Of a stretch of 64,000 nt of DNA, positions 3,253 to 64,000 are shown one piece after another. The DNA lies in assembly GCA_903851045.1 (NCBI GenBank), contig CAINNF010000019.1, positions 47,854-111,853 on the forward strand, in the 5' to 3' direction. Position 1 is the stretch's first letter; the number at the start of each line of letters is the position of its first letter. Under the pieces are notes generated by a model. It was not told where the DNA came from, made no database searches, and saw only the letters and a list, made by a program, of their open reading frames with translations. The DNA is from Candidatus Adlerbacteria bacterium. GTDB taxonomy: Bacteria; Patescibacteriota; Minisyncoccia; Phycocordibacterales; SBAW01. Both the position numbers and the translations under genes were made by a program.

Positions 3253-3354
3253 ATTTATTAAAAAAGAAGTTTTTGCATTATTTATTGCATTTTCTACTTT
3301 TTTTAACCATATCAGTATATAAGTAGTCGCACAAGATTGTGCTAGGACGACAGA

Positions 3355-4305
3355 TCATCGCTTTATGACCTCCCGGACGTAGTAGCGGCGTTCGTTGGGG
3401 GAGGTGGCGAGTTGGATGCGGATCAGGAGGTCGATGATGATCCCGAAGCTAAAGAGGAGTATGCCCGCGAGGAGGAAGAAGAAGCTGAGGAAGAACCATC
3501 CATTGCGGTTGAGCGAGAGGCCGAGGAATAGTTTGCCATAGAAGGTCCACGCGAAGGAGACGGCGCTCATGGCGTAGGCGACGAAGCTGAGGTAGCCATA
3601 GAGGTGGAGCGGGCGCTGGGAGTACTTGTGGATGAACCAGATATAGACGAGGTCGATAAGGCCGCGCAGCGCCTTAGAGGGGCCGTATTTGCTCACCCCG
3701 TGGACGCGCGCGCGGTCGGTGACGACCAGCTCGCCGATAGTGAAGCCTTTCCACTTTAGGAGCGCGAGGATGTAGCGGTGCATCTCGCCGCCGATGTCGA
3801 GGCTCTGGACGGCGGCGCGGGTGTAGACGCGTAGGGTGCAGCCGGTGTCGTGGACGATGTCGCTGATGAGTAGGCGGCGCAGCATGCGGCCGATGCGGGT
3901 GAGGATGCGCACTTGGGCGTTGTCGCTGCGGGACTTGCGCCAGCCGGCGACGACGTCGAGGTTTTCTGTACGCATCTTGGCAAGCAGGCGGGGGATGTCG
4001 TGGGGGTCGTTTTGGCCGTCGCCGTCTAGCGATATGACGACTGCGCCCGTGGCCGCCTTAAAGCCCGCGTCTAGCGCGACCGCTTGGCCATAGTTGCGAC
4101 TGAGGTTGATGATCGTGACGTTGGTGAGCGCCTTGAGCTCTTGGAGCGAGCCGTCGGTGGAGCCGTCGTTGATGTAAATGACCTCGAAGGGCTGACCCAG
4201 CGAGGCGAGCACCTCTTGGAGTTCGGTATTAAGCCGGGGGATATTACCGGCTTCGTTGTATATCGGCACGACGGCAGAGAGTGACGGGTGTTCGGGGTTT
4301 GTCAT
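3355..4305 (-). CDS. GT2 polyprenol-phosphate glycosyltransferase (DPM1/ArnC/GtrB-like) with C-terminal TM helices
   Basis: SAVVPIYNEAGNI, YINDGSTDGS and DGDGQNDP motifs; hydrophobic C-terminus. Confidence 0.85.
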   Translation of the reverse strand: MTNPEHPSLSAVVPIYNEAGNIPRLNTELQEVLASLGQPFEVIYINDGSTDGSLQELKALTNVTIINLSRNYGQAVALDAGFKAATGAVVISLDGDGQNDPHDIPRLLAKMRTENLDVVAGWRKSRSDNAQVRILTRIGRMLRRLLISDIVHDTGCTLRVYTRAAVQSLDIGGEMHRYILALLKWKGFTIGELVVTDRARVHGVSKYGPSKALRGLIDLVYIWFIHKYSQRPLHLYGYLSFVAYAMSAVSFAWTFYGKLFLGLSLNRNGWFFLSFFFLLAGILLFSFGIIIDLLIRIQLATSPNERRYYVREVIKR

Positions 4306-4351
4306 AGGTATGCGACCATACTACATCATTATATTCAATAAGTAAAGGGGT

Positions 4352-4582
4352 TTGCATAGTTTTTTGCCAATGTGCTACACTTGTTGCATGGCTACGGTTA
4401 CCAAAAGACAAAAGGCTTTGAGTCCCAGCGTCAAGGCTTTTATCGTCGAGGCGGTGTATGAGGCGCTGAACGACCCTGACCGAGGTTTAGACTTGTCCGA
4501 AGAGACGAAGCGAAGGCTTGCTGGCGCGCAGACGAAGCAGGCGAGGGTATCTCTTGCTGACGTTAAGAAGAAACTCTATTAA
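4352..4582 (+). CDS. Putative antitoxin partner of the RelE/ParE toxin (alternative start 4388)
   Basis: Small ORF ending 19 nt upstream of the RelE-like gene; basic/helical C-terminus. Family not recognised. Confidence 0.45.
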   Translation: MHSFLPMCYTCCMATVTKRQKALSPSVKAFIVEAVYEALNDPDRGLDLSEETKRRLAGAQTKQARVSLADVKKKLY

Positions 4583-4600
4583 CACTGAACGACGAGGCGT

Positions 4601-4867
4601 ATGTGGCGAGTGGAGTTAACGTACAAAGCCCAACAGGATCTTGCGAATCTCGACCGTCCTGTGCGTCGTCACATCATAGAGCGGCTCGAGTGGTTCGCAG
4701 AAAACTTTACTTCGACACAGCCGTCTCCTCTGCATGCAGACTGGAAGGGTTTTTATAAGGTGCGTTTTAGCAGTTGGCGAGTGGTCTATAGTTTTAGCAC
4801 AAGAGACAGTTGCATAACAGTTCACTACATCGATCGTCGCGATAAGGTGTACAAACGGCGTCTCTAG
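4601..4867 (+). CDS. RelE/ParE-family type II toxin (plasmid stabilization system protein)
   Basis: 88 aa, MWRVELTYKAQQDLANLDRPVRRHIIERLEW...WRVVY...RRDKVY; classic RelE/StbE pattern. Confidence 0.8.
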   Translation: MWRVELTYKAQQDLANLDRPVRRHIIERLEWFAENFTSTQPSPLHADWKGFYKVRFSSWRVVYSFSTRDSCITVHYIDRRDKVYKRRL

Positions 4868-4875
4868 GAGGGTTG

Positions 4876-4903
4876 TTGCTATATATAAAATACGTGGTAT
4901 AGT
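4876..4903 (+). promoter_or_regulatory. Sigma-70-like promoter, TTGCTA-16-TATAGT
   Basis: -35 TTGCTA at 4876-4881 and -10 TATAGT at 4898-4903, 16-nt spacer, upstream of the 4933 ORF. Confidence 0.4.
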
Positions 4904-4932
4904 GTTACTAGTTTCAAGAAAGGTGTGTGTTC

Positions 4933-5187
4933 ATGGTACCAGTACCGCAGGAGGCCGAGGGTATCGCCCGAGAGATCGGGAGCAACAATCTGGCGGTCGT
5001 GCTCCAGAGGTGTCGCGAGCTTGGACTGGATGGCGAAACGCTGCTGCTTATCCTGTATGGGCGGCTGATGCAGCGTCACCATACTGGCGTGTTGTCGTAT
5101 GACCAGGTACAAGCCTTCGAACAAAGGCTTGGGCTGAGTGCCGACACGTATCATGAGTGGAGACTCCTGGTCAAAGAGGCGCTCTAG
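4933..5187 (+). CDS. Hypothetical protein
   Basis: ATG at 4933 preceded by AAAGGTG; no recognisable domain. Confidence 0.4.
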   Translation: MVPVPQEAEGIAREIGSNNLAVVLQRCRELGLDGETLLLILYGRLMQRHHTGVLSYDQVQAFEQRLGLSADTYHEWRLLVKEAL

Positions 5188-5339
5188 TGGTCCTAACAAG
5201 CGACCAACCCAACACCTAGTGCGACCAACTACCCTAAGGCCGGGACGACTTTTGTCCCGGCTTTTTTCTTTGGTACAAGGGTTGTCCTTGTAGGGACGGG
5301 TTCGTGTGGAAAATTTTGACAATATGCTATACTACTGGC

Positions 5340-5555
5340 ATGAAAACTGCGCACTCATATCGTTTTCCTATCGTGCTCGAAAAAGACGAGCATGGCTACT
5401 TCGTGTCCTGCCCAGCCCTCCAGGGTTGTTATAGCCAGGGCGATACGTACGAAGAGGCGCTCGCCAACATTCAAGACGCTATACGGCTACATGTTGAGGA
5501 TCGCCTCGCCGAAAAGGAGAGGATCGAGGATCCCAAAGTTTTAAAAGTATTTTAG
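5340..5555 (+). CDS. HicB-like antitoxin (UPF0150 family), orphan
   Basis: MKTAHSYRFPIVLEKDEHGYFVSCPALQGCYSQGDTYEEALANIQDAIRLHVE is the typical HicB/UPF0150 N-terminal domain. No HicA gene recognised nearby. Confidence 0.6.
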   Translation: MKTAHSYRFPIVLEKDEHGYFVSCPALQGCYSQGDTYEEALANIQDAIRLHVEDRLAEKERIEDPKVLKVF

Positions 5556-5618
5556 ACGAGACAGGACTTTTCTCAGAAGATTTTATATAGAATCCGTACA
5601 AGGATAAACCTTGTACTA

Positions 5619-7121
5619 CTAGAAGCGGTAGACCCAGATGTGGGAGTAGTCGTTGACTTGGTCGTCGTAGGCGAGTGGGAGCGAGTGGATGTAGGCGAGG
5701 GTGTCGTCGGGGAGGCGGCCGCTTTCGGCCATCGTGTCGAGGACAAGGTAGCCGTGGTGGGTCGCGGTGATAGCTTGGAGGTCGGCGAGGTCGCGCAGCG
5801 TGTCGGCACCGACGTAGAACTCGCGCTCGCCCGCGACCTCTTGGCGCTTGGTGTCGAAGCCAAGGTAGTCGTAGGCGAGCCAGTAGCCTGGTTGCCCGAG
5901 GAAGATGTTGTTGAACTGCGGCTGTGTGGAGATGGTGATGTCGCCGTCTTGTTGGTGGGTTTTGATATAGGCGTAGGCGCCGCTCCAGTTGGGCTGGGGT
6001 GTATAGGCGTAGTAAGGGCGGCCGGGCATCGTGGCGGGGTCGTCGGCCTCCAGTAGATAGAAGTTGCGCGGGACAAGCACACTAAAGCCCAGCCCAAAGA
6101 AGAGCCCCAGGAGCGCGACGACAAGTAGTACCTTTTCATATCGATGGCGCAGGAGTGCGACAACCTCGAGCGCACCCACGGCCGCGAGCAGGTAGAGCGC
6201 GGGCGTCACCTGAAAGAGGTATCGGTACTCCACGACGTTAGTGAGGAAGGCGAGCGGCAGCAAGTACGCAAAGATGATACATAGGAGCAGATAGACCCCT
6301 TTGGTGTTCGCGGTGCGCAATGTCGCGACTATCGCGAGGAGTAGGAAGGGCCAGTAGGTGCGGATATAAAAACTGCTGTAGTAGGGGAGCACGTAGTGCG
6401 GGTGGATCATCCCGAGCAGGCCGAAGAAGAGTCCTGGCAGTAACACCCAAAGGAGTGCGACCGTTGCGATAGGTAGCGTCAGTAGCGCGAGGAGGTCGCC
6501 CCATGAGCGCATTTTTGTACCGAGCCAGTCCGCCACGAGCCACGCGATGAAGATGATCGGCAACAGATACCCCAGCGCGTGTGTGTAGACGGCAAGGAGC
6601 GTCGCGACGACGCTGCCTGCGCCCCAGAGCAGTCGATACCGCTTCGTATAGAGCGTCTGGTAGAAGCACAGCACCGCAAGCCAAAAGAAGACCTCGAAGA
6701 GCGTGTACCACCGCGCCTGGCGCGACCACGCCACCTGCCAGTAGGAGAAGGTGACGAGCCCTGCGGTGACGAGCCCCGTGGTCGTACCGAAGAAGGCGCG
6801 ACCAACAAAAAAGAGAACGAGGATAAGTACCGTGCCCGCGATGACCGACAACAGACGATATGCGAAGGCATTTTCGCCCAGCGCGTGGGCGAGGGAGGCA
6901 GTAGGGTAGCAGTAGAGGGGGCAGGAGTACGTGTGGCCGGAGTTAAGTACCGAGCTGCCGTGGTCGACGATAGCCATCACCGCGTTGACCGTGTAGCCTT
7001 CGTCCATCCAGTAGGACTGGTGGGAGAGTTGGTACACGCGAAGTGTCGCCCCAGACAGCATAAGGGCGCACAGGAGCGCGACCGTCCACCAACGGGTGGG
7101 TACTTGCATTATTTTGCGCAT
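5619..7121 (-). CDS. GT-C membrane glycosyltransferase, PMT/ArnT (GT39/GT83-like) family
   Basis: 500 aa, multi-TM, N-terminal YWMDEGYT loop motif typical of dolichyl/undecaprenyl-phosphate-sugar dependent GT-C enzymes. Confidence 0.7.
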   Translation of the reverse strand: MRKIMQVPTRWWTVALLCALMLSGATLRVYQLSHQSYWMDEGYTVNAVMAIVDHGSSVLNSGHTYSCPLYCYPTASLAHALGENAFAYRLLSVIAGTVLILVLFFVGRAFFGTTTGLVTAGLVTFSYWQVAWSRQARWYTLFEVFFWLAVLCFYQTLYTKRYRLLWGAGSVVATLLAVYTHALGYLLPIIFIAWLVADWLGTKMRSWGDLLALLTLPIATVALLWVLLPGLFFGLLGMIHPHYVLPYYSSFYIRTYWPFLLLAIVATLRTANTKGVYLLLCIIFAYLLPLAFLTNVVEYRYLFQVTPALYLLAAVGALEVVALLRHRYEKVLLVVALLGLFFGLGFSVLVPRNFYLLEADDPATMPGRPYYAYTPQPNWSGAYAYIKTHQQDGDITISTQPQFNNIFLGQPGYWLAYDYLGFDTKRQEVAGEREFYVGADTLRDLADLQAITATHHGYLVLDTMAESGRLPDDTLAYIHSLPLAYDDQVNDYSHIWVYRF

Positions 7122-52034: not shown

Positions 52035-52107
52035 GGGCCCTTAGCTCATTTGGTAGAGCGCCTCATTTGCAATGAGGAGGTGACCGGTTCGATCCCGGTA
52101 GGGTCCA
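52035..52107 (+). tRNA. tRNA-Ala (anticodon UGC)
   Basis: Cloverleaf: acceptor GGGCCCT/AGGGTCC with G3:U70, D-arm GCTC..GAGC, anticodon stem CCTCA/TGAGG with loop TTTGCAA, T-arm GGTTCGATCCC. 73 nt, no encoded CCA. Confidence 0.9.
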
Positions 52108-53686
52108 CATCGTCGGAGTTTTGTTCGCAAAACTCCTCAAATAGCCTTGTACTGCTTAACGAATTAGCGGTTCGAAAGCCATCGCATTTAGTGTATGGAA
52201 GTCGTTCGTCAAAAAGGAAGAAATAAAGACGTTGTTTTTCTTGCGGACCTGCTTTTTGCCAGATCATTACTGGGTTTTTCAGCATTCCCGTAGACTTTGC
52301 TAGTGCGGTTCGATAAGGCACAGCGAGGTCTCGTTTAGACCCACTCGGCGAGCCCTGCTCGATCTCTTTCGCTGTTGCTTCAATCTGCTCCTCATACGCC
52401 CTCCTGACGGCGTCGGAGCGCGTGGTGCGTGCAAGTTCGGTGAGCTCACGCAACTTATCTTGCAGCTGTTCCTGTCGCCGAGCATTGAGGTTCTCTTGCT
52501 GTTTTAAGCCCACGACCTCTTGCTTCCATACTCGTTCAAATGTGAGTTGTACAAGCTCGTCCGTTTCCGCCTTGAGGCGGTTACGTCTAAGTAGCGTATC
52601 AAAGTCGCTCTCGAGGTCTGCTTTGCTTAGCATTTTTGAACGTAAGGCACAGCCTTTTGTCATGCAGTAGTAATACGGATAAGTCTTACTGCGTCCTTTG
52701 CAAAACGCACCGGTTAACTTTTGCTTGCACTCAGGGCACAACACCAAACCGCGCAGAGAAAAGTCAGATGAGACATCTCGTCGAATGCGCGTACCCGACA
52801 CCTCCTTTCTCAAACGTTTTTGGATAAGCTCAAAGGTCTCAACCGAGATTATACCTCTATGGCGTCCCTTACGACGTGCGATGCCCCAAGGTGCGTATTC
52901 GACATCTCCGCAATGAACCACGTCTTGCAACATGGCACTCACCTCATCGAGGTAATGTTCCGCGGTTCTCTTTGAGTTTTTCCAGTACTTGCGCTTAAAA
53001 AGAAACCGAGCGACGTCCACTTTGCGAATGAGGTTGCCTGACGCAAAAGCTTCGAGAGCTTCCTTCAAAATGCGACCGTCTTTGTTTGGGACAAGCAACT
53101 TACCGTGGAGTGGGTCTTTGATCATGTCGTAACCCCTTTTACCTCCAAATGACCAGTAGCCGAGCTCAAGACGCGCTTTCATTTTTTGAATAACTTGGCG
53201 GCGGTTTTGTTTGCGTTCTAGTTGCGCTTGACCTGCGAAGATGAGCTCGACAAACTCGCCCTCCTCACTCTCGTCAAAGTTGTAATTTGGACACCTCAAC
53301 TTAATATCTCTTATTTTAAAGGCAGCACGTAGTTTGAAGTGTGCATTTACATCACGCGCAAGGCGCTTTAGGTCATCAAGATCGACAACAAACTTCTTGT
53401 GTGGATGTGCATCTATGTACGCAAGCATCGCTCGCATTGCAGGGCGGAGCATAAAGTCGCCGGCACCGGTAAAAGTATCTGGAAATGTCTTTACAAAAGG
53501 TACTCCGATCGATCGTAAGTCCTGTTTACAGCGCTCCTCTTGGCTTTCGCGTCCGTGCCCCTCTTTCTCTTGGCGCTTGCTTGAGACGCGCACGTACACA
53601 AGACCCTCTCTACCAGCGTAGGGGTTAGCGTCCTCCACTATTTGCTGGAACTCTTTTCTAACTTTTTGTATTGACATAGTTTTCAA
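52046..53686 (-). CDS. Large serine recombinase (resolvase/invertase N-domain, recombinase domain, Zn-ribbon); the ORF reads antisense through the tRNA-Ala 3' end
   Basis: LVYVRVSSKRQ (catalytic Ser), recombinase-domain motifs, CPECKQ...YYYC...C zinc ribbon, C-terminal coiled coil. The last ~20 codons are antisense tRNA, so the real C-terminus may be shorter. Confidence 0.8.
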   Translation of the reverse strand: MKTMSIQKVRKEFQQIVEDANPYAGREGLVYVRVSSKRQEKEGHGRESQEERCKQDLRSIGVPFVKTFPDTFTGAGDFMLRPAMRAMLAYIDAHPHKKFVVDLDDLKRLARDVNAHFKLRAAFKIRDIKLRCPNYNFDESEEGEFVELIFAGQAQLERKQNRRQVIQKMKARLELGYWSFGGKRGYDMIKDPLHGKLLVPNKDGRILKEALEAFASGNLIRKVDVARFLFKRKYWKNSKRTAEHYLDEVSAMLQDVVHCGDVEYAPWGIARRKGRHRGIISVETFELIQKRLRKEVSGTRIRRDVSSDFSLRGLVLCPECKQKLTGAFCKGRSKTYPYYYCMTKGCALRSKMLSKADLESDFDTLLRRNRLKAETDELVQLTFERVWKQEVVGLKQQENLNARRQEQLQDKLRELTELARTTRSDAVRRAYEEQIEATAKEIEQGSPSGSKRDLAVPYRTALAKSTGMLKNPVMIWQKAGPQEKQRLYFFLFDERLPYTKCDGFRTANSLSSTRLFEEFCEQNSDDVDPTGIEPVTSSLQMRRSTK

Positions 53687-54499: not shown

Positions 54500-55171
54500 A
54501 TGTCAAACATTTTCATACTTTTGTTCGTAGCCTCCCTCGCCTGTGCAGTGGTTGGTGTGATCCGACCGTCCGCCATTCGTTTTCAATCACGCGTCCGAGC
54601 TCTACTCGTGTTCGGTGGAGCGACCCTCGTATCTCTTATTCTCGTTGGAATAACCTCGAGCTCTAGTCCTGTAGTCCAAGCTCCTGTTCAGACCGTAACG
54701 ACAACAACTGTCAATCAGAACGAAACTCCCGATGGACAGATCAAGCAGATCGTCATGAGCGTGCCGACCAACGGTAAATACCAAGGCTCGGGTACTATCG
54801 GAAAGGTTGATGTGTATCACGTCCCTGATCAAAACGACCCAACAAAGTTTATTGGGTGGGGTGTCGATGTTGATCTCCACATCGAGGGGTCGCGTGCTCT
54901 CATGAACGAGGAAATGGCAGAAGTTTACTACGCTCTATATTCAAACCGCAAAGATATAACCTCGATAGCGGTTTCTGCCTACGAACCAGTCAGCGATAAG
55001 TACGGTAACCAGAAAGACATGGAGGTATATCACACTTTCCTAAAGGCAGACGAGGCGTCAAAGGTTAACTGGTCGCTTGGACACGACGACTTGGTTTACA
55101 CGGTGTTGCCGAAAGTATGGACTGTTAATCTCGACATATCGGCTACTAACCCGGGACTTCTTCAAAGATAG
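54500..55171 (+). CDS. Membrane-anchored hypothetical protein (island cargo)
   Basis: Two N-terminal TM helices then a ~170-aa soluble domain; no family recognised. Confidence 0.5.
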   Translation: MSNIFILLFVASLACAVVGVIRPSAIRFQSRVRALLVFGGATLVSLILVGITSSSSPVVQAPVQTVTTTTVNQNETPDGQIKQIVMSVPTNGKYQGSGTIGKVDVYHVPDQNDPTKFIGWGVDVDLHIEGSRALMNEEMAEVYYALYSNRKDITSIAVSAYEPVSDKYGNQKDMEVYHTFLKADEASKVNWSLGHDDLVYTVLPKVWTVNLDISATNPGLLQR

Positions 55172-55175
55172 ACTT

Positions 55176-57152
55176 TTAGTCCCACAAAAGTTTAATTTTT
55201 GCGTCTATTTCGTTTTCTAACGCTGTTATCTCCTTTGCATGTTTGCGTATTTTCTCGATAAGCAAGTCCATTTTGTTTTGCTCTTTAAGTGACGGCAGAG
55301 GAATACGACTATCCAGAAACAGCTCTACCTTGAGCCTCTTTCGGTTTGTAGTACCTAGACTAGATCGAGCACACAAGTCAGCGAACTTTTTGGACTTTGT
55401 TATCCTCTGTAAATAGTCCTCAGTTATTAGGTTTTTTTGGATTGAAAAAACAGGAAAGTCTTGTGATACAACGCACCCGTCAATATCCTTTGGTATTATT
55501 CCGAACGCTCCGTTTCTAGCATCTATCTTTGAAATGAGAAACTGCCCAGCACGTCCGATAAACTGCCTCTTTGTCTTTATTTTTGATCCAACAACCTCTT
55601 GTCTCAACTCAACTCCTTTCCCGTAAAGTTTGACCGTTGCTTGCTTGTAAAGTTTATCGTTTTCTAACTTAACAATGTCTTTGGATTGAATGAGTAGGTC
55701 ACGTAGAGGAACCATCTTTGATCCATCTTTGCGCGATGTGACGGGTTTGCTTTTCAGATACGCATCAACAGATAATGTTTTTTTATCCGCTGAAAGGACA
55801 TCTTTTCTATCAATCAGTGCGATCTTTTCATTTGTTGAAGTGTAAGTCTTTCCACTTGCAATACTCTTTCTAAAACTGAGTATTGCTTCTTGAATATCTG
55901 GTAGATCATTCTCGTGGATAGGTGTTCGCTGACTTCCTAAGTCATACCCGTCAGCATCAACACGACAAAACATTAAACTGCTATTTTTTTCTGCGATAGA
56001 CTTGTCTAGGAATAAGATCGATGTTGTTACTGTTCCTGAGTAAGGATTGAACGTTCCCGCAGGTAGTGACACCACACACCACAACCCCTTTTCAAGCAGT
56101 AACTCTCTGATCCTGACGTGTGCTTTCGTGTCGCCAAAAATAACTCCTTGAGGGACAACTACACCTAATTTCCCCTTACTAGAAAGATGATCGACCATAA
56201 AGCGCAAGAAAAGGAGTTCGGTAGCTTTGGTTCCCATGCGCAGGTCTTCTGACACACTTTCCTCGTCGATCTTGCCGCTAAACGGGGGGTTGGCGAGTAT
56301 CACGTCGAACTTGTCTTTCATTCCTGTCGTATCAGTAAGTGAGTTTTGTCGATCAAGACGTGACTTTGTTAGGCCGTGGAGATGCAGGTTCATCATGCCG
56401 AACTTGATCATGTCCTCATCGCTGTCGAAACCGGTGAACATATGGTTAAACAAAAACTTTTTCTCGTCTGCAGACAACTTGTCCATTGCGCGAGGACTAC
56501 CGGCTTTCTTTAACTTGTCGCTCGTGTACTCGCCGGCGATGTAGCGGTAAGCGGCGACGAGGAAACCTGCCGTGCCACAAGCTGGGTCGAGTATTGTTTC
56601 GCCTTTCTTTGGATCAACAACCTTAACCATAAAGTCGATAATGTGGCGTGGTGTACGAAACTGGCCATTTGTACCCGCAGACTTTAACTTTTCCAAAAGG
56701 TACTCGTACATGTCACCAAAGACGTCCTTGTTGCCCTCGTGTGCGATAGCGTCGAGCTCTTTTGCAAATGCTTCTATCTCGTGCAAAACGCGGCGCAGTG
56801 TTGGTTTATCAAATATCTTTATGTGTGCGTTACGAAAAAGAAGTTTGACGGTAGGGTTTGTCGACTTCTTTTGCAAAACATCAAACGATGCCTCAAGTGT
56901 TTTAAAGAGGTCTTCTGCGTTGAGTGCCAACAAGTTTTGCCACCGGTATTTTGCAAGATCGCCGGTGAATATCTTTCCACTTTCATCGGTGATGCCGAGC
57001 AACTCAGCTTCGTCATCTTTGATTGAAAGAGCGCGTAGAAAAAGCAGATAGTTTAATTGCTCGATGATCGTCTGCGGATTGGAGACACCGGCACCAAAGA
57101 GGATGTCCATTAGCGCGTCTATTCGGTGCTTGTAAAGTGAAATGGTATCCAT
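55176..57152 (-). CDS. hsdM: Type I-like R-M N6-adenine DNA methyltransferase fused to a single target-recognition domain (HsdM-halfS fusion)
   Basis: HsdM N-terminal helical domain, motif I DPACGTAGFL, motif IV ILANPPFSG; the C-terminal ~230 aa resemble an HsdS TRD plus conserved helix (LPSLKEQNKMDLLIEKI...LENEIDAKIK). Confidence 0.75.
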   Translation of the reverse strand: MDTISLYKHRIDALMDILFGAGVSNPQTIIEQLNYLLFLRALSIKDDEAELLGITDESGKIFTGDLAKYRWQNLLALNAEDLFKTLEASFDVLQKKSTNPTVKLLFRNAHIKIFDKPTLRRVLHEIEAFAKELDAIAHEGNKDVFGDMYEYLLEKLKSAGTNGQFRTPRHIIDFMVKVVDPKKGETILDPACGTAGFLVAAYRYIAGEYTSDKLKKAGSPRAMDKLSADEKKFLFNHMFTGFDSDEDMIKFGMMNLHLHGLTKSRLDRQNSLTDTTGMKDKFDVILANPPFSGKIDEESVSEDLRMGTKATELLFLRFMVDHLSSKGKLGVVVPQGVIFGDTKAHVRIRELLLEKGLWCVVSLPAGTFNPYSGTVTTSILFLDKSIAEKNSSLMFCRVDADGYDLGSQRTPIHENDLPDIQEAILSFRKSIASGKTYTSTNEKIALIDRKDVLSADKKTLSVDAYLKSKPVTSRKDGSKMVPLRDLLIQSKDIVKLENDKLYKQATVKLYGKGVELRQEVVGSKIKTKRQFIGRAGQFLISKIDARNGAFGIIPKDIDGCVVSQDFPVFSIQKNLITEDYLQRITKSKKFADLCARSSLGTTNRKRLKVELFLDSRIPLPSLKEQNKMDLLIEKIRKHAKEITALENEIDAKIKLLWD

Positions 57153-57156
57153 GTTT

Positions 57157-59529
57157 TTACAACGTTAATATCTTTGCGTTTGAAATATCCGACACGAGCT
57201 CAGTAAGCTCCTCTTTCGAGAAAACATCAAGCCACTCGGACACTGAGTATGCCTGTGCGAACTCATCCCAGCGCAAGAAGTCGAGTGTCGGGTTTGCCTG
57301 TACAGTTTGGCGGAACTTATCGTTTGAGATCGCTTGGTCAGCAATAAACTCGACCATGACCGCGCGTTTGAATGAGCTCTCTGGTTTGTCGGATTGAGCA
57401 AACTTATTTACCAGTGCTTCTTTGAACGAAGTGAGCTGCTCGTCACGGGTCGGAAGTGGCTGCTTGCCGATCGCAGACAAGAAAAACTCGCGCACGCCAG
57501 CGACGATGCGATGCGAGACCTGCAAGTTTTCCTCGTTGAAGTACAGCTTTGGTTTGTTGAGGAGTGTTTCGTTGATCTCGGTGATAAGGTCCTCAACTTT
57601 GTCCGGGTCCTCAAGGGCGCCGGACACCATGTCGGTCTTATTGCTCATGAAAGTCTGGACTGCTTTCGTCCACTCGTCACGGTACATATTTCGGTCCACA
57701 GTGTCGCCTTCAGGGAGGGTTATTACGTCCCGGGTCAAAACAACGTCCGGGGTTTGGGAGACACGAGGCTCGGAAAGGCCCTTATCTTGGTCCACGGGGC
57801 CCACATCTCCAGAACCTGCTGTACCGGTCGAACTGGTGGTGAGACCTCCCTCACGGGCCAATTTAGCGGGGGCTTCCCAGTCGTATTTGTCGTCGAAGTA
57901 AGAAACCACCCCACAAAAGTCGAAAACAACGAACTCTTTCTTGCCGATCTCGGGGCACAGGCGGGTACCTCGTCCTTTGATCTGTTGGTACGTGATCGGG
58001 TCGAAGATGGGGCGTGCGAGCAGGATGTTTAATATCTCTGGACAATCAAAACCAGTAGCGAGCATGTCCACAGTCACACCGATGCGCGGTAGTTTGTTTG
58101 TGTCTTTGGCAAAGTCTTTTGCGATGTCGTGTGCGCCGGGAATGCGTGAGGTGATGGTCATTGCAAAGCGACCACCATATTCAGGCTTGAGTTCGTTTAA
58201 TATTTTTTCGAGTGCAAGCGCGTGGTCTTGTGAGACTGCAAAAATAAGCGTCTTGCCGATCTCGCCATCTGGCGTGCGCACTGCATGCTCGAGGAACTCC
58301 TCCATCATGCGGCGGTTGCGCACTGGGAAGTGCACTTTCTTTTCAAGGTCGCGTATCTTGATGCTTTCGCCCTCCTCAAGCTCCACGTCGTTGAGTTCGG
58401 TGATGCCCTCCTCGGAGAGTGCTTGCTGTGTGATCGACGTGTTCATTTTGTGATACTTCGGTGGTATCAAAAACTTTGCAGCCACGCCGTCTTGGAGTGT
58501 GTATCGGTATGTCGCTACACCATCATCGCAACCGAAGTAACGATATGTGTCGCGTTGAACACGACGCTCAAGTTTGCGTGGGTCTTTTTCTGCGAGCTTG
58601 TCGGTATTTATGTTCTTGAGGAAGTCGCGCGGCGTTGCGGTGAGACCGATCTTGGTTGCGCCGACGAAATGGTCGACCGCTGCGCGTGCCTCAGGTGAGT
58701 AAATACTGCGATGTGCCTCGTCATGGATTATGAGATCGAAATATCCGGGTGAAAAGTCACGACCGCCGTGGAGCATGAGCGACTGTATGGTTGCCACGAC
58801 CACGTTTGAACCAGTGAGGTTTTTTCTGTTTGAACCCCAATAAGTACCGACAGCTGAGACACCACGAAGCAACTTCTCAAAAGTATTTTTAGTCTGGATA
58901 GCGAGTGACTTACGATCTACCAAAAAAAGGACGTTCTGCGCATTGTTGGAACGCAAAAAGCGAGAGATGATGAGTGAAGCCAAAACGGTTTTACCAGTAC
59001 CAGTCGCCATTTCCAAAAGAAAAGCATGTTTACCCTTGTCGTAGTTTTCTGCGATCGCGTTCCATGCGTCGATCTGGTACGGACGGAGCGTTACATTGTC
59101 TGCGACATCATTGAAGTAGCTCTCAGTAACCGGCTCCTCGCTAAACTTCTTTGCGAGGTTCATTGAGCGCGAACTTTGGCGGCGCATTAGGTCCTCTTGC
59201 GAGAAAAAAGCTGGCACTACTTGCGCATCACCGCCGTTATCGAGGTCCCACAAGTACACGAGCTTATCGTTAGCAAGGTAAATAAAACGTACTTTTGGGT
59301 ACTGTGCCTGAATGTAGTCGAATGCTTGTTTCTTTGCGCTGTATGGATCGACATCAGGGCGCTTTGCTTCGATGAGCGCGATAGCGTGACCGGAAGTGTC
59401 TTTGAGAACGTAGTCGGCGCGACCAGCATCTCCATGGTCCTCAAAAATAACTTGAGATGAGTTCTCAATGTCCCAGCCCGCTTCGCGGAGTTTTTTATCG
59501 ATAATGACGCGTGAGTATGCCTCGTTCAT
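57157..59529 (-). CDS. hsdR: Type I restriction enzyme R subunit, compact (EcoEI/Type IB-like)
   Basis: N-terminal PD-(D/E)xK (ADYVL...ALIEAKR), SF2 helicase motifs (MATGTGKT, IIHDEAH, helicase-C), C-terminal EcoEI_R_C-like region. Start placed at MNEAYSRV; the ORF extends to 59580. Confidence 0.8.
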   Translation of the reverse strand: MNEAYSRVIIDKKLREAGWDIENSSQVIFEDHGDAGRADYVLKDTSGHAIALIEAKRPDVDPYSAKKQAFDYIQAQYPKVRFIYLANDKLVYLWDLDNGGDAQVVPAFFSQEDLMRRQSSRSMNLAKKFSEEPVTESYFNDVADNVTLRPYQIDAWNAIAENYDKGKHAFLLEMATGTGKTVLASLIISRFLRSNNAQNVLFLVDRKSLAIQTKNTFEKLLRGVSAVGTYWGSNRKNLTGSNVVVATIQSLMLHGGRDFSPGYFDLIIHDEAHRSIYSPEARAAVDHFVGATKIGLTATPRDFLKNINTDKLAEKDPRKLERRVQRDTYRYFGCDDGVATYRYTLQDGVAAKFLIPPKYHKMNTSITQQALSEEGITELNDVELEEGESIKIRDLEKKVHFPVRNRRMMEEFLEHAVRTPDGEIGKTLIFAVSQDHALALEKILNELKPEYGGRFAMTITSRIPGAHDIAKDFAKDTNKLPRIGVTVDMLATGFDCPEILNILLARPIFDPITYQQIKGRGTRLCPEIGKKEFVVFDFCGVVSYFDDKYDWEAPAKLAREGGLTTSSTGTAGSGDVGPVDQDKGLSEPRVSQTPDVVLTRDVITLPEGDTVDRNMYRDEWTKAVQTFMSNKTDMVSGALEDPDKVEDLITEINETLLNKPKLYFNEENLQVSHRIVAGVREFFLSAIGKQPLPTRDEQLTSFKEALVNKFAQSDKPESSFKRAVMVEFIADQAISNDKFRQTVQANPTLDFLRWDEFAQAYSVSEWLDVFSKEELTELVSDISNAKILTL

Positions 59530-59545
59530 AAAATATAAAATATGC

Positions 59546-59728
59546 CTACTTGATCTTTGTCTTAGCCATGAACCGCTCAAACTCGATGCGGTCCACTCTG
59601 AACTCCTTGCCGATCTTGTGGGCAGCGAGCCGCTTTGCCTTGATGTAACGGTAAATAGTCATGACATTCACCGATAATATCTTGGCCACCTCCGTTGCTG
59701 TGTAATACGTTTTTTCGTCTTTATTCAT
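59546..59728 (-). CDS. Excisionase-family helix-turn-helix DNA-binding protein (MerR-like HTH_17)
   Basis: YTATEVAKILSVNVMTIYRYIKAKRLAAHKIGKEFRVDRIEFERFM. Confidence 0.65.
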   Translation of the reverse strand: MNKDEKTYYTATEVAKILSVNVMTIYRYIKAKRLAAHKIGKEFRVDRIEFERFMAKTKIK

Positions 59729-59764
59729 ACCGTTTAGCTACCCTAGAATGATACTTGACTTTTG

Positions 59765-59794
59765 TTGACATTACAATACCTGAGCGAGTACAAT
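59765..59794 (+). promoter_or_regulatory. Sigma-70-like promoter TTGACA-18-TACAAT for the DUF4145 gene
   Basis: -35 at 59765-59770, -10 at 59789-59794, ATG at 59801 (near-leaderless). Confidence 0.45.
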
Positions 59795-59800
59795 ATCCTC

Positions 59801-60481
59801 ATGAAAGCTAAGCTTAGTAACGCAAATGTAAGAGCACGATGTCCTGATTGCGACGGCGCTTTGACAACCTTTGAGAGGGTTTATGGTGGACGTGAGTTGG
59901 GTCACGTACTGATAAATTACTCTCACTACTATGGTCCTAGTATTTATTCACGTATCCTCTACACGCTGTTACGTTGTGCAGGTTGTGGCCGTGGTGGTTT
60001 AGCAAAAATACACGATAATGGTAATGAAAACGATGCGGCGCTCGAGTGGTTTTTCCCCAACTCGCTAGAACTATCGGAGTTACCCGATGCTGTCCCAGCT
60101 GAGATTGAGGCTGACTTTCGTGAAGCTGAGACATGTGCCTCGTTCGGCGCAAAGCGAGGTGCTTCTGCGCTCATCCGATCGGCGCTTGAAAAAGCACTGA
60201 AGGCGAGTGGTTATGTAAAGCGCTCACTCGAAGCTAACATCGACGATGCCGCGAGTGATGGTGTTATCACTGATGCAAGAAAGCAAAAGGCGCACGAAGA
60301 TGTGCGTGTGCTCGGTAACGACGTTTTACATGATGCGTGGAGGGAGGTAACCGATGAGGAAGTGGAGTTGGCTATCCACTACACACAGCGTGTATTGGAA
60401 GACCTTTACGATGACCGTAACTCAGTCGAAAACATCTTACTTGCTAAGAAGCGCTTGCCTGAAAAAAAGACTGAAAACTAA
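59801..60481 (+). CDS. Zn-ribbon + DUF4145 (HEPN-like) domain protein
   Basis: N-terminal CPDCDG...CAGCGRG; C-terminal ASALIRSALEKALKA...VRVLGNDVLHDAW...VLEDLYD matches the DUF4145 consensus (R..GN..aH). Confidence 0.7.
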   Translation: MKAKLSNANVRARCPDCDGALTTFERVYGGRELGHVLINYSHYYGPSIYSRILYTLLRCAGCGRGGLAKIHDNGNENDAALEWFFPNSLELSELPDAVPAEIEADFREAETCASFGAKRGASALIRSALEKALKASGYVKRSLEANIDDAASDGVITDARKQKAHEDVRVLGNDVLHDAWREVTDEEVELAIHYTQRVLEDLYDDRNSVENILLAKKRLPEKKTEN

Positions 60482-60484
60482 AAC

Positions 60485-61366
60485 ATGTCCTCTAAAAAGC
60501 CCTTAAAAGAGAAAACAGTTGCGCAAGAGATCATCGAACGGAGCGGAAACTCCTTTCATTCGCGTGTCGTAAATAAACTGCGCGAGTTGGAGTGGGGCGT
60601 GTTGGTTAGTCCTCATTACAACGATAACTTTACCGACAAACCTCGTGAAATAGACATAATCGCTGAGAAGAAGTTTGACGTGAATGAGTTTATGAACGAC
60701 TGGCTTGGCACTCTCAATGTGCGCCTATTTATCGAGTGTAAGTACATCAACGGCGATACTGTTTTCTGGTTTGAGGCTAAAGATATGGAACGAGCTACCC
60801 ACCGCATAATGCGAGACACGGGGCTCGAAGACCCTCGTCATAATACCGGTATACAAAAACATCATTACTACACTGCTGTGCCTGTCGCAAAGCTCTGGGC
60901 TTCCAACTCAAACAAAAGTGAGGACAATGAGGTAATGAACAAAGCCATCAACCAAGTGCTTAATGGGATGATCTACTACCGAAATGGTGGAGACCTCAAA
61001 ATAGCGTCAAATAAAAACGGGTATATGGACCGAGTGTTGAAACGTACATCGTATCCACTCATTGTTGTTAACTCATTCGAAAACTTTCATGCAACGCCGA
61101 TGAGTGGTGATGGGGAGCCGCAGCCTATAACCGAGCCATTCGCTTTGGAAGTAAACTATGCTTACACCGACAAGGATCACAAAGGGGTCAATGAGTATTT
61201 TCTGATTGACGTCGTGAGCTTGGATAAGCTTCCTGAGTTCCTTACATCAGCCATAGAAAAAGCAGACGTGGCGACCATATCTGAAAAACTGAGGTGGGAC
61301 CAGCGTTCTGCCCGTGCGGCGGAGAGCCGAAGTCAACAGAACCGTGGGATTAGCGACTACATGTAA
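60485..61366 (+). CDS. Hypothetical protein with N-terminal PD-(D/E)xK-like nuclease motif
   Basis: EIDIIAE ... LFIECKY (D ... E-x-K spacing) in the first 95 aa; C-terminal ~190 aa unassigned. Confidence 0.5.
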   Translation: MSSKKPLKEKTVAQEIIERSGNSFHSRVVNKLRELEWGVLVSPHYNDNFTDKPREIDIIAEKKFDVNEFMNDWLGTLNVRLFIECKYINGDTVFWFEAKDMERATHRIMRDTGLEDPRHNTGIQKHHYYTAVPVAKLWASNSNKSEDNEVMNKAINQVLNGMIYYRNGGDLKIASNKNGYMDRVLKRTSYPLIVVNSFENFHATPMSGDGEPQPITEPFALEVNYAYTDKDHKGVNEYFLIDVVSLDKLPEFLTSAIEKADVATISEKLRWDQRSARAAESRSQQNRGISDYM

Positions 61367-61372
61367 AACTTT

Positions 61373-61870
61373 ATGACAATCCTCTACATAGCAGCCGGTA
61401 TCATCATTGCAGCAGCCGTTGTACTTGCTTTTTTACGTGGTGATCTTGGTGGTGCTGATGAGGAGAAGGCAAAGTATGACTACAAACGCAGGAGCTTCTT
61501 TCTCACGCGTGCGGAGCACGAGTGTTACGACGCGCTGGTTGCCGCTGTTGGTAATGAGTATCTCGTCTTTGCTCAAGTGCATCTCCCGACGCTAGTCGAC
61601 AACAAGGTAAAAGGGCAAAACTGGCGTGCTGCATTTCGCCACATCAGCGAGAAGTCAGTCGACTTTGTGTTGTGCGATAAGGCGTACATCTCTGCGAAGC
61701 TCGCCATTGAACTGGACGACAAGACACATGAGCGTCCTGAGCGGCAGGAGCGGGACCGGGAGGTGGAGCGCATCCTGCAGGGCGCCGGTCTGCCTCTCTT
61801 GAGGCTCGAGAACCACGGGAGCTTTAGCCCAGCTGAACTTGCCTCCAAAATAAAAGAAGCTCTCAAGTAA
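61373..61870 (+). CDS. TM-anchored DUF2726 (restriction-endonuclease-like/NERD-related) domain protein
   Basis: N-terminal TM; FLTRAEHECYDALVAAVGNEYLVFAQVHL...SVDFVLCDK...IELDDKTHERPERQERDREVERIL matches the DUF2726 pattern. Confidence 0.65.
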   Translation: MTILYIAAGIIIAAAVVLAFLRGDLGGADEEKAKYDYKRRSFFLTRAEHECYDALVAAVGNEYLVFAQVHLPTLVDNKVKGQNWRAAFRHISEKSVDFVLCDKAYISAKLAIELDDKTHERPERQERDREVERILQGAGLPLLRLENHGSFSPAELASKIKEALK

Positions 61871-62113
61871 GTGCCTAAAGCGAGACTTGCAACTTCAAGC
61901 ATTCGAAGTTGGAATGGCCACATGGTTTTTCCAAACAAACAAAACACCGCCGAGCTCCAGCGGATCATCAAAGAAACAACCGGGCAGGATGTGTCCATCC
62001 GCGAGACCTTTAGGGTTTGGCATTATTTAAACAAGGTGCTCCTTTGCACAAGTCTGTGGAATGATGACGTTGAGCCTCCGCGCGCGAGGGCACAGCAAGC
62101 GCTCTTTGACTGA
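61871..62113 (+). CDS. Small hypothetical ORF (low confidence)
   Basis: GTG start directly after the DUF2726 stop; no RBS. Confidence 0.2.
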   Translation: MPKARLATSSIRSWNGHMVFPNKQNTAELQRIIKETTGQDVSIRETFRVWHYLNKVLLCTSLWNDDVEPPRARAQQALFD

Positions 62114-62943
62114 CAAGCGGAGTGCGTTTAAACCTTACGCGCGAGAAATGTAAGTTGGTTGAAGTGGTTTTTATCTCCACTTTGCTACAAAATGGCTTGG
62201 ATTAAAGGTTTCTTGTTTTTTAACCTCACTTACATCAACTTCAACCACATTAATCGCTTACACTTCGCATTTGGAGCATTCATTTCGCCTTACGCGCGAG
62301 TACTCCAAGTTGCTCACTGTGGTGGTTTGGCTGTTTTTGTTGTATTGCATAGCTTTTTTACGTTATACGCCTGTTGGAGCCTTTGTGGCTATTGGAGCCA
62401 GAATGTGCTCGATCACCTTGGCGTTGAATGCGTTGCCTAAGGCCTTGTAGCGCTGTGTGTTGTTGAGCAACGAGTGATCTTTCGCGCGCGCGCCGCGCGC
62501 GGAGTTGTTGTAGCTATTCTAGTACACAGTTCAATACCCTCATTGTGTACCTACTGAAATGATAAAGACCTTGTGTCCGCTAGGCATTCCTGCAACAACG
62601 GGCTCGTTCGGTAGTAATCCCAGAACCGTTCGAGGCAGCTTTTAAGCTGGTTCGAAGTATTATGGGAGGTGTCCACACGAGGAAGCAGGTTTCAGGTACC
62701 GTATTTTGATGTCTTTAAAAATTAGCATTCTTTCTCACATAAAAGAAAATGCTGAAGATAAAAGCCTACTAGATTTTTGCTCTACAGAAACTATTTTGTT
62801 ATTTTGCAAAAAACTAAAATAAGCAGAGCAGAAAGAGAAATGGGCGTCAGGTAGCGATTTTCTATATATTGAGTGGTGCGTAAAGGGACCACTTCATGTT
62901 TTTTTGGATTTATACTGAGGGTATATTAGTAGCACAAAGTCTT

Positions 62944-64000
62944 TGTGAAAAAAATACTTTTGGTCGCGGTTTTGGTGTGTGCTCCTTCGTTCGCGTTCGC
63001 TTCGTTTGACCAGAATCTCCAGTATGGCTCGCATGGGCTCGCGGTGCGTGACCTGCAGATCTTTCTTGCGTCGCAAGGGTGCTTGACGATGAACCCGACG
63101 GGTAATTTTTTTGGCGTAACACGTCAAAGTGTGAAATGCTTCCAGGGGCAGCACAATGTGCCGACGACAGGGTACTTCGGCCCTATGACACGTGCGCTCG
63201 CGAACTCGCTTGCTGCGTCCAGCACATCCACCCAGTCGCAAGGTACGCAGCCGCAGGGGACTCAAAAGCAGCAGACTTTTCCAGCGACGCCACCGACGCA
63301 AGGACAGGGTCAACAAAATCAACAGCCATCAGCGACCGCGACTAGCTCCGATAGTAGCCAATACTCGCTCGCGCAGGCCATGAGCGACAACGCGCAACTT
63401 TCAACCATCGCTTTTAGTGGGCTGGCGTTCATCACGGGGAGCGCAGGGGCGGACACCTTCTTCCCGCCGGGCAAGGTGGCGGACTTCTTCGGCTTTCAAT
63501 ACATGCGCGATGTGGATACCGCCGGGTATGGGCACAATACGCAGTTCCTTACGCGCGTCGCCAATAATGTACTCTCCATCCTAACCGATGACCAAAAGGC
63601 GAAACTTATCGCGCTCGCCAAGGTGCAGGCGCCCAAGTACACCAACTTCGCGTACAACCGCTTCTTGGTAACCAACGCATTTCGTCGCGACCTAACCGGT
63701 GATATCCCTGCGGGTTCGACGGGTCTTAGTACCTCGTCGATATCGACCTACGTCGGTGATCTCTACAAAACGGATGCGGACCTTAGCTACAACCGCGCGC
63801 TCGTCGTCGGCGCAATCATCAACTCGTTCACCGGCACACAGAAGGCCTATCTTGCGAAGATGCAGTTCAACGACTTCACTACGTGGCCAGACGTGCCCGA
63901 GAACGCGGCTATCAAGCAGGGACTCAGTAATAGCGAATATATCGCGCTCATGACCTACGCGAGCGAACTCTTTTCGTGGTACAAGGGGAGCGTCGTCGCG
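62944..64000 (+). CDS. Secreted protein with N-terminal peptidoglycan-binding domain and Q-rich linker (partial, continues past window end)
   Basis: Not in the ORF track because no stop falls inside the window. GTG start after an in-frame TAG; signal peptide VKKILLVAVLVCAPSFAFA; GSHGLAVRDLQIFLASQGCL...GYFGP PG_binding_1 motif; GC returns to host-like. Confidence 0.6.

Follow-up and report, generated by a model that had tools for sequence, protein, structure and literature searches.

Three tightly packed genes in a Patescibacteria defence island are probably independently assorting modules, the first of them RAZR-like

Three co-oriented genes that almost touch one another, lying in a low-GC island beside a Type I restriction-modification (R-M) system, raise the question of whether they work as one defence system or have merely been packed into one operon. 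The sequence-only reading of the window, a stretch of 64,000 nucleotides from a CPR/Patescibacteria genome, had proposed the former, namely one undescribed three-gene system. The comparative analysis reported here argues for the latter: genes 1-3 are probably autonomous modules, assorting independently of one another, that share one operon on a mobile defence island, with gene 1 being RAZR-like. The features of the locus are as follows.

59546-59728, minus strand: HTH_17/excisionase-family DNA-binding protein, 60 aa (Pfam HTH_17 4e-14; TIGR01764 1e-12)
59765-59794, plus strand: sigma-70-like promoter TTGACA-18-TACAAT, 11 of 12 positions as in the consensus, which would serve a gene 1-2-3 transcript
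59801-60481, plus strand: gene 1, 226 aa, Cys4 zinc ribbon and DUF4145/HEPN domain (Pfam DUF4145 1.8e-12; PADLOC PD-T7-4 7e-10)
60485-61366, plus strand: gene 2, 293 aa, stand-alone PD-(D/E)xK nuclease of an unnamed family
61373-61870, plus strand: gene 3, 165 aa, N-terminal TM helix and DUF2726 (Vsr/DUF559-like) nuclease domain (Pfam DUF2726 3.2e-29; DUF559 2e-5)
61871-62113, plus strand: fourth ORF, 80 aa, GTG start, doubtful
62305-62330 and 62480-62504, plus strand: two terminator-like hairpins in the low-GC spacer 3' of the operon, consensus matches only

Direct reading of the sequence confirmed the gaps of 3, 6 and 0 nt that had been described between the co-oriented ORFs (59762/59801-60481, 60485-61366, 61373-61870 and 61871-62113 on the plus strand, with 59546-59728 on the minus strand). 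Given that hundreds of conserved homologues exist for each of them, genes 1-3 are not chance ORFs. The TTGACA-18-TACAAT promoter is likewise present as read, and because promoter-like sites in this region are no more numerous than in shuffled sequence, it is to be taken as a consensus match only. Its position within the TTG-started ORF places the start of gene 1 at the ATG at 59801, giving 226 aa, in agreement with the gene callers and with all homologues. The −10 box ends 6 nt before this ATG, a spacing from which the gene 1-2-3 mRNA may be leaderless, and the three genes are probably co-transcribed from one promoter. The fourth ORF had no family match in Pfam, NCBIfam, PADLOC or PHROGs, tblastn found relatives of it solely in contigs that match the window exactly over these genes, and gene calling left it out in L001 and returned only a shorter version in L002. 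It is probably not a gene.

The surroundings of the operon contain the following features.

52035-52108, plus strand: tRNA-Ala, overlapped by the 3' end of the serine recombinase gene
52046-53686, minus strand: XisF/Ccr-like large serine recombinase, marking the edge of the island (Pfam Resolvase, Recombinase and Zn_ribbon_recom; NCBIfam XisF 3e-22, under the cut-off)
55176-57152, minus strand: methyltransferase HsdM with one fused target-recognition domain (TRD), 658 aa (PADLOC MTase_I 5e-110 and Specificity_I 1e-34; Pfam N6_Mtase and Methylase_S)
57157-59529, minus strand: HsdR-like Type I restriction subunit, 790 aa from the ATG at 59529 (PADLOC REase_I 5e-63; Pfam ResIII and HSDR_N)

The defence-island setting claimed for the trio held up, with Type I R-M neighbours and a GC content of 0.40-0.51 across 52-63 kb against about 0.55-0.59 elsewhere. 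The region from 59.5 to 62.1 kb forms the distal end of this island, which is mobile, adjoins tRNA-Ala and encodes the large serine recombinase. Direct repeats of the tRNA-Ala 3' end were sought for the far boundary of the island and gave no convincing att repeat; serine recombinases need no such direct repeats. The right-hand boundary is drawn from GC content only. Pfam, PADLOC and NCBIfam agreed with the earlier assignment of the Type I neighbours as HsdR and an HsdM-TRD fusion, the HsdR-like protein matching the NCBIfam EcoAI-family model at 6e-79, under that model's cut-off. The gene divergent to gene 1 does belong to the excisionase-family HTH proteins, and it opens a divergent HTH-HsdR-HsdM operon. 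A MADS system was considered for the HTH_17 and methyltransferase genes and rejected (MAD1 29 bits against a cut-off of 80, MAD2 110 against 720); they are better explained as an HTH gene with Type I HsdR and HsdM-TRD.

Do the three genes travel together? One new three-component abortive-infection or restriction system, in which a HEPN RNase, a PD-(D/E)xK protein and a membrane nuclease act jointly, would fit the co-orientation, the 3-nt and 6-nt gaps, the one promoter, the nuclease-type folds in all three products and the site in a defence island. However, a gene-1 or gene-3 relative stood beside gene-2 relatives at none of 45 species-level GTDB loci, and a gene-2 or gene-3 relative stood beside gene-1 relatives at none of 80 metagenome loci, 48 of which had at least 900 nt of downstream sequence. 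The full trio was seen only in contigs whose sequence over these genes matches the window exactly and whose gene products are 100% identical; these were taken as the same genome. In the closest relative apart from these (L134), genes 1 and 3 are both present (84% each) while two unrelated ORFs replace gene 2, and at another (L135) gene 2 (84%) is followed by DUF2726 without gene 1. Moreover, the RAZR family, to which gene 1 is related, works alone (PMC13017515). The claim of one three-gene system therefore fails on co-occurrence, and joint action of the three genes as a dedicated system is very unlikely. Still, the short gaps (3 and 6 nt) and the one promoter indicate co-expression here, and functional cooperation in this genome is possible as far as comparative data alone can tell.

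The nature of gene 1 bears on the same question. A zinc ribbon joined to DUF4145 had been read in its product, and both parts were found: the DUF4145 match is above the Pfam gathering score, and two CxxC pairs (C14-x2-C17 and C59-x2-C62) are invariant. The HEPN-like R..GN..H motif also stood, as R169-VLGN-DVL-H177, so that C14, C17, C59, C62, R169, N173 and H177 are all invariant among 22 homologues. By contrast, the statement that no described system was recognisable did not stand, since gene 1 maps to the named single-gene system PD-T7-4, now RAZR. PD-T7-4 was the sole PADLOC match of gene 1 and likewise of all 22 family members, and the only meaningful match in the PDB was RAZR itself (9y9c, E=1.6e-4). 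PD-T7-4 was described by Vassallo et al. (2022) and has been renamed RAZR, for ring-activated zinc-finger RNase; it is a single-gene abortive-infection protein that is set off by ring-shaped phage proteins and cleaves ssRNA, with an abortive-infection phenotype (Nature 2026, PMC13017515; PDB 9y9c).

Gene 1 and RAZR share an architecture of N-terminal Cys4 zinc ribbon, linker and C-terminal DUF4145/HEPN domain, at 226 and 219 aa, respectively. In the alignment, 'RVLGNDVLH' of gene 1 falls on 'RIVGNQAVH' of RAZR, so that the unusual R-x7-H catalytic spacing (R146/H154 in RAZR) is common to both, and D204-D205 of gene 1, invariant or nearly so, fall on the oligomerisation residues D179-D180, the DD motif at the dimer-dimer interface of RAZR. 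RAZR R184 has no counterpart, the aligned position in gene 1 being V209. Gene 1 also resembles RAZR in having no conserved partner, with no recurrent neighbour family at the 80 loci of gene-1 relatives. The relationship is nevertheless distant, with HMM and PDB E values of about 1e-9 to 1e-4 for a partial match that is confined to the linker and the HEPN part (positions 63-163 of the 211 in the model). At about 85 aa against about 65 aa in RAZR, the sensor of gene 1, its zinc ribbon, is some 20 residues longer, and it is unaligned; HMM comparison detected no homology between the two zinc ribbons, and what they share is the motif and its position alone, RAZR carrying CPHC at the same place as a CxxC of gene 1. 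The hosts differ as well, gene 1 belonging to a CPR bacterium. Gene 1 further matched phrog_1305 over its full length (4e-25); tblastn against phage records returned no matches.

Other defence proteins with a DUF4145/HEPN domain are Ishtar (bioRxiv 10.64898/2026.07.06.735840) and BxaP (PMC10799925). They have the DUF4145 HEPN RNase domain and the defence-island location in common with gene 1, but in both the DUF4145 domain is N-terminal, with a beta/alpha or HEAT-like domain fused behind it, whereas in gene 1 the zinc ribbon comes first, as in RAZR. Judged from its sequence, gene 1 is probably a single-gene abortive-infection protein of the RAZR (PD-T7-4) type and a distant relative of RAZR. 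By homology, its N-terminal Cys4 zinc ribbon would sense phage proteins that form rings, for example the portal; on binding, pre-formed gene-1 oligomers would bend and the C-terminal DUF4145/HEPN RNase (R169/H177) would be switched on, and the RNase would cut tRNA, rRNA and mRNA, stopping translation and aborting the infection. Because the sensor is longer than that of RAZR and unaligned, the trigger may differ.

Gene 2 had been read as nuclease-like from a D...E-x-K pattern, and this was upheld, with D57...E84-C-K86 invariant among 87 homologues. The predicted structure is a confident model, in which the alpha-beta-beta-beta-alpha-beta core together with the D...(D/E)xK triad places the protein in the PD-(D/E)xK superfamily. 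Beyond this core the model has additional beta strands and, at the C terminus, a helix of about 44 residues, for neither of which a structural relative was detectable. The family comprises 859 clusters of uniform size (about 250-295 aa) without fusions. Gene 2 had no match in Pfam, NCBIfam, PADLOC or PHROGs, its profile had none among PDB sequences, and tblastn against phage and plasmid records returned none. Two Pfam families were tried for the gene-2 family and rejected as below threshold, UPF0102 (YraN; best E 0.008, 22 of 87 members) and XisH (best E 0.017, 4 of 87 members). A Foldseek search of the full model against the PDB gave nothing below 1e-3, the best matches being the restriction-like endonucleases of R2 retrotransposons (E about 8e-3). 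The closest known kinds are the stand-alone PD-(D/E)xK nucleases UPF0102/YraN, XisH and Hjc, together with the nuclease domains found in Can2/Card1, Upx, McrC and Shedu SduA. Gene 2 would thus be a stand-alone, Mg-dependent PD-(D/E)xK DNA endonuclease (D57/E84/K86), which probably oligomerises via its long C-terminal helix; its most likely role is that of a solitary nuclease, either restriction-like or triggered. Neighbouring genes vary by locus, including Type III R-M (6-7 loci), Ppl, KAP NTPase, Shedu and integrases.

The XisF-like recombinase at the island edge brings up a role in the mobile element, with gene 2, gene 3 or both serving it, for example as an XisH-like excision or directionality factor. 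The similarity of gene 2 to XisH is no better than that to a dozen other PD-(D/E)xK nucleases, a serine recombinase was detectable within about 6 kb at only 3 distinct gene-2 loci, and many DUF2726 loci have no recombinase. A link between gene 2 and serine recombinases was rejected as a general explanation on the count of those 3 loci, and service to the mobile element is extremely unlikely.

Gene 3 had been read as a membrane-anchored DUF2726 protein, and this reading was supported throughout: the DUF2726 match reaches 101.7 bits against a cut-off of 24.7, and a hydrophobic helix spans residues 3-22. D97, E113-L-D115-D116 and H119 are invariant. Homologues number more than 1200, the best 120 of which are 68-99% identical; there were no matches among PDB sequences, and a scan of viral contigs gave only 3 distant matches (32-34% identity). 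By passing the Pfam DUF2726 model and carrying the D...ExD...H signature, gene 3 joins the DUF2726/DUF559/Vsr group of PD-(D/E)xK nucleases (Steczkiewicz et al. 2012, PMC3424549). Gene 3 would be a Vsr/DUF559-type nuclease (D97/E113/D115/H119) that is tethered to the membrane and probably has its catalytic domain on the cytoplasmic side. The DUF2726 family has a noted association with mobile elements and is abundant on conjugative plasmids; on plasmid Rts1, its neighbours are hypothetical proteins. The CPR subgroup differs in its N-terminal TM anchor, in its conservation (68-99% for the best 120 of more than 1200) and in its fixed last position in varied defence arrays.

That last position was seen in a small sample of about 10 independent contexts on contigs selected by length alone, in every one of which DUF2726 was the last co-directional gene. 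It followed Avs4 (E=0), a Ppl-like gene (1e-39), a Type III REase (6e-240), a Type IIG enzyme (2e-107) and an exonuclease effector, starting 2-51 nt past the preceding ORF in the contexts with recognised defence genes. At one locus it started 22 nt after an HTH_3 gene, and at another, in a serine-recombinase island, 8 nt after two unassigned ORFs. A common small partner ORF ahead of DUF2726 was considered and rejected, the preceding ORFs (48-196 aa) being mutually unrelated. Counting Avs4, Ppl, Type III, Type IIG, RAZR, the gene-2 nuclease and the exonuclease effector, at least 7 system types precede it. In CPR bacteria, gene 3 would therefore be a promiscuous 'tail' gene of many defence arrays without a fixed partner.

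These contexts also bear on whether genes 2 and 3 form a two-gene module of a soluble PD-(D/E)xK protein and a membrane DUF2726 nuclease, with gene 1 as a separate RAZR-like system. The two genes are directly adjacent both in the window (6-nt gap) and at L135/L136 (4-nt overlap; 84% and about 71-82% identity), and at L049 a Type III Res gene stands between gene 2 and DUF2726. Gene 2 is thus succeeded by DUF2726 in two or three independent contexts, depending on whether L049, with its intervening gene, is included, which is more often than it occurs with any other single partner. Yet at about 40 other loci DUF2726 is absent within 6 kb of gene 2, and DUF2726 sits just as tightly behind at least 7 other gene kinds, so that the promiscuity of gene 3 explains the adjacency. 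A dedicated gene 2-3 pair is distinctly unlikely.

Alternatively, gene 3 could be a generic accessory to whatever defence genes precede it, for instance a downstream effector that they share, or a Vsr-like nuclease for repair or clean-up that accompanies methyltransferase systems. Its relatedness to Vsr and DUF559, its invariable position as the last, co-directional gene a very short distance behind defence genes, and its very high conservation (68-99% in the best 120) while partners change are all in keeping with such a role. However, the partners Avs4, Ppl and RAZR have built-in effectors and no methyltransferase, one context consists of just HTH_3 and DUF2726, and no mechanism is known that would let a single nuclease serve systems so unrelated. 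We consider a generic accessory role unlikely. No described defence system in PADLOC 2.0 contains DUF2726, and a bolder proposal is that the CPR TM-DUF2726 is a new, very widespread defence module, a membrane-tethered Vsr-fold DNase that has stayed 68-99% identical among CPR lineages and ends at least 7 unrelated system types, with the gene-2 family as a new single-gene restriction-like system. This proposal is conceivable but tentative, and if it were true, TM-DUF2726 might attack DNA at its entry point or act as a common back-up effector.

Taken together, the locus is an ordinary mosaic defence-island operon, and for annotation it should not be entered as a new three-gene system. It adds two orphan families, an unnamed PD-(D/E)xK nuclease of about 270 aa that often adjoins Type III R-M, and a DUF2726 nuclease with a membrane anchor, found at the tail of CPR defence arrays of many kinds; both are candidate single-gene defence systems. 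Since defence islands are known to abound in orphan nucleases, these families are not surprising in themselves. To our knowledge, the phages of ultra-small episymbiotic CPR bacteria are almost unknown. A distant RAZR-like protein in CPR/Patescibacteria would take an RNase that senses supramolecular phage structures beyond E. coli, to these ultra-small episymbionts.

The ORF scan of the window gives five ORFs across the trio region, which share a low-GC island with a restriction-modification (R-M) operon and a recombinase.

52035-52108 (+), tRNA-Ala(TGC), at the island end opposite the trio
52046-53686 (−), large serine recombinase (HMM matches)
55176-57152 (−), HsdM fused to a single target-recognition domain (HMM matches and gene calls)
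57157-59529 (−), HsdR-like gene (HMM matches and gene calls)
59546-59728 (−), 60-aa ORF of the HTH_17/excisionase family (ORF scan)
59801-60481 (+), gene 1, from ATG 59801, 226 aa (ORF scan)
60485-61366 (+), gene 2, 293 aa (ORF scan)
61373-61870 (+), gene 3, 165 aa (ORF scan)
61871-62113 (+), fourth ORF, following gene 3, 80 aa (ORF scan)

As the sequence-only reading had described, the ORFs, the Type I R-M neighbours and the divergent HTH gene are all present, with gaps of 3, 6 and 0 nt between successive plus-strand ORFs from gene 1 onward (sequence read directly) and a GC content of 0.40-0.51 over 52-63 kb versus ~0.55-0.59 elsewhere in the window. The minus-strand operon divergent from gene 1 (55176-59728) opens with the 60-aa HTH_17/excisionase-family gene, continues with the HsdR-like gene and the HsdM fusion, and is Type I-like without a separate HsdS; a MADS identity was rejected, the MAD1 and MAD2 models scoring far under their cut-offs. 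With its 3' end, the recombinase ORF extends antisense across tRNA-Ala(TGC), so the island borders this tRNA or has integrated there; an att-like direct repeat sought at the island's other end was not found. Also inside the island is a LOOT RNA motif (Rfam RF03000; 54321-54445, plus strand), a full-length match scoring 78.1 bits (gathering score 46.4), and a 223-aa ORF (54500-55171) with only weak PHROG matches starts 55 nt downstream of it. Within an AT-rich non-coding spacer of ~850 nt (62114-62960; GC 0.44), CCTTACGCGCGAG... occurs as a direct repeat at 62133 and 62288, and positions 62480-62504 form a perfect GC hairpin.

Gene 1 had been assigned a promoter of its own. The TTGACA-18-TACAAT element is present at 59765-59794 and matches at 11 of 12 positions; however, promoter-like sites in the region are no more numerous than in shuffled sequence, so that it counts as a consensus match only. 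Because the element falls within the TTG-started ORF of the mechanical scan, gene 1 must start at ATG 59801, the start used by gene callers on contigs that match the window exactly across these genes and the position at which its homologues all begin. The −10 box ends 6 nt ahead of this ATG, which suggests a leaderless gene 1 mRNA. The 72-nt divergent intergenic region (59729-59800), with two copies each of TACAATA (59773 and 59789) and TTGAC, may include an operator at which the HTH protein acts on both sides.

The trio had been proposed to form a single undescribed system. When the four plus-strand ORFs were compared by tblastn with all 148 fetched loci, the full trio was recovered only in loci L001-L004, whose gene products are 100% identical to those of the window and which were therefore taken as the window's own genome assembled from other samples. 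In the island's closest other relative (L134), gene 1 (84%) and DUF2726 (84%) are separated by two unrelated ORFs (128 and 96 aa) in gene 2's place, while two further loci (L135 and L136) are without gene 1 and carry a gene 2 (84%) overlapping DUF2726 by 4 nt. Gene-1 relatives at 51-62% identity come from 80 metagenome loci, 48 of which extend 900 nt or more downstream; none of the 80 has a gene-2 or gene-3 relative, and no neighbour family recurs among them. Homologue source names, among them Candidatus Paceibacterota, Minisyncoccia and Giovannonibacteria, assign the window to a genome of the candidate phyla radiation (CPR), or Patescibacteria. By this comparison the three genes shuffle as separate cassettes within CPR serine-recombinase islands, and a new three-gene system, as first framed, is unsupported. 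The window's trio is very probably co-transcribed and translationally coupled, as is usual where defence islands are compact, and this implies no joint mechanism.

The sequence-only reading had not recognised the trio as a described system. Gene 1 matches Pfam DUF4145 (1.8e-12) and a single PADLOC model, PD-T7-4 (~8e-10), which is also the sole PADLOC model matched by each of the 22 aligned family members; its one meaningful PDB match is 9y9c ('DUF4145 domain-containing protein', 219 aa, 24 chains; E=1.6e-4). PD-T7-4 has been renamed RAZR, ring-activated zinc-finger RNase (Nature 2026, PMC13017515), a single-gene system acting by abortive infection, in which an N-terminal Cys4 zinc-ribbon sensor precedes a C-terminal DUF4145, a divergent HEPN RNase with catalytic R146/H154. 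RAZR is activated as a 24-mer assembled around ring-shaped phage proteins (T7-type portal or Gp77); once active it cuts single-stranded RNA and brings translation to a stop. Mutation of D179-D180 breaks higher-order oligomerisation (PMC13017515). In the 9y9c alignment, gene 1 RVLGNDVLH pairs with RAZR RIVGNQAVH, so that R169/H177 correspond to R146/H154 with a common R-x7-H spacing, and D204-D205 align with D179-D180. Residues C14, C17, C59, C62, R169, N173 and H177 are invariant in 22 homologues. The match is confined to model positions 63-163 of 211, which comprise the linker and the HEPN portion. The zinc-ribbon region, ~20 residues longer than that of RAZR, does not align, which fits a fast-evolving sensor domain, and the trigger may differ. 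By these alignments gene 1 is a RAZR relative, a new but distant member of a described family. By homology, its zinc ribbon would sense a ring-shaped phage protein, upon which the protein would oligomerise and cleave cellular and phage RNA, aborting infection.

The DUF4145 and DUF2726 calls stood. Gene 2 had no match in four HMM libraries; D57, E84 and K86 of its proposed nuclease motif are invariant in the family alignment, as is C85. Invariant polar residues of the C-terminal half include H127, K136, Q157, N160, R166, E222, N224, E237 and D242. The AlphaFold model is confident (pLDDT 91.3, pTM 0.88), and Foldseek returned no significant match to it. Gene 2 has 549 close homologues, and its profile retrieved 859 of 1.84 billion cluster representatives at E<=1e-3 (241 of these at E<=1e-30); the best 150 of the 859 are almost all ~250-295 aa, with a few shorter, probably partial sequences and no fusions. 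We assign gene 2 to a family of stand-alone PD-(D/E)xK nucleases that has no name.

At 45 species-level loci, gene-2 relatives have heterogeneous neighbours, and a gene-1 or gene-3 relative adjoins none of them, with one partial exception (L049, DUF2726 2.7 kb away). The commonest neighbour is Type III R-M (6-7 of ~41 loci), with Mod and Res in L011, L013, L032 and L049. In L032 (4419-9029) the relative is flanked by mod (517 aa) and res (754 aa), and in L011 and L013 it comes 3-4 nt after res; these positions hint that it may be functionally tied to Type III systems in some lineages. Other neighbours are a KAP NTPase, a Shedu protein, a GHKL ATPase, DUF2971 and DUF3800, besides tyrosine integrases and IS200; many relatives from Proteobacteria, Nitrospirota and other phyla stand alone. 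Within another serine-recombinase island (L005, 3508-6594), a relative (61% identity) lies 5 nt after a 1028-aa Ppl-type protein (PADLOC Ppl 8e-26). Fold and context point to a metal-dependent DNA endonuclease that would act alone and, since most relatives have no methyltransferase alongside, may be modification-dependent or triggered.

Gene 3 matches DUF2726 (3.2e-29), with weaker DUF559 and MTES_1575 matches; the DUF2726 group has been classed with Vsr in a PD-(D/E)xK survey (PMC3424549). Its family alignment has an N-terminal hydrophobic helix (residues 3-22) and invariant D97, E113-L-D115-D116 and H119. Because positive charges are found after the helix but not before it, the predicted catalytic domain is probably cytoplasmic by the positive-inside rule. 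The homologue search gave over 1200 sequences, of which the 120 best are 68-99% identical, and no PADLOC 2.0 model matches the family. In seven contexts, six picked for long contigs and one for occurrence on many contigs, DUF2726 is always the last co-directional gene, 2-51 nt behind the preceding ORF.

L145, full-length Avs4 (PADLOC E=0; 2142-6977, 1611 aa; CPR metagenome contig), immediately between a DpnII-type R-M and TM-DUF2726
L149, Type IIG-like methyltransferase and Ppl-like ATPase (1e-39) upstream
L143, Type III Mod/Res (REase_III 6e-240) upstream
L137, PLD-SNF2 protein and Type IIG enzyme (2e-107) upstream
L141, exonuclease 'effector' upstream; serine-recombinase island ending at housekeeping genes
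L144, two unknown ORFs upstream; another serine-recombinase island; caspase-HamB-like helicase downstream
L139, lone HTH_3 gene upstream

The small ORFs often preceding DUF2726 are mutually unrelated. Distant homologues (<60% identity) occur in 2803 plasmid records, 2400 of them conjugative, mostly from Enterobacteriaceae; on plasmid Rts1 (103104-103637) the gene lies among hypothetical genes. Gene 3 is a TM-anchored DUF2726 nuclease tailing many defence arrays in CPR genomes, and fold and context suggest a membrane-tethered Vsr-type DNase that would have no fixed partner.

Sequence or structure comparison establishes the folds, the catalytic residues and the absence of conserved partners for the three proteins. 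We consider it rather unlikely that the CPR TM-DUF2726 gene is a new and widespread module, attached in a systematic way to defence systems of unrelated types, and that the gene-2 family is likewise a new single-gene restriction-like system. Genes 2 and 3 represent families that are uncharacterised, but their kind, nuclease-fold genes in defence islands, is very well known.
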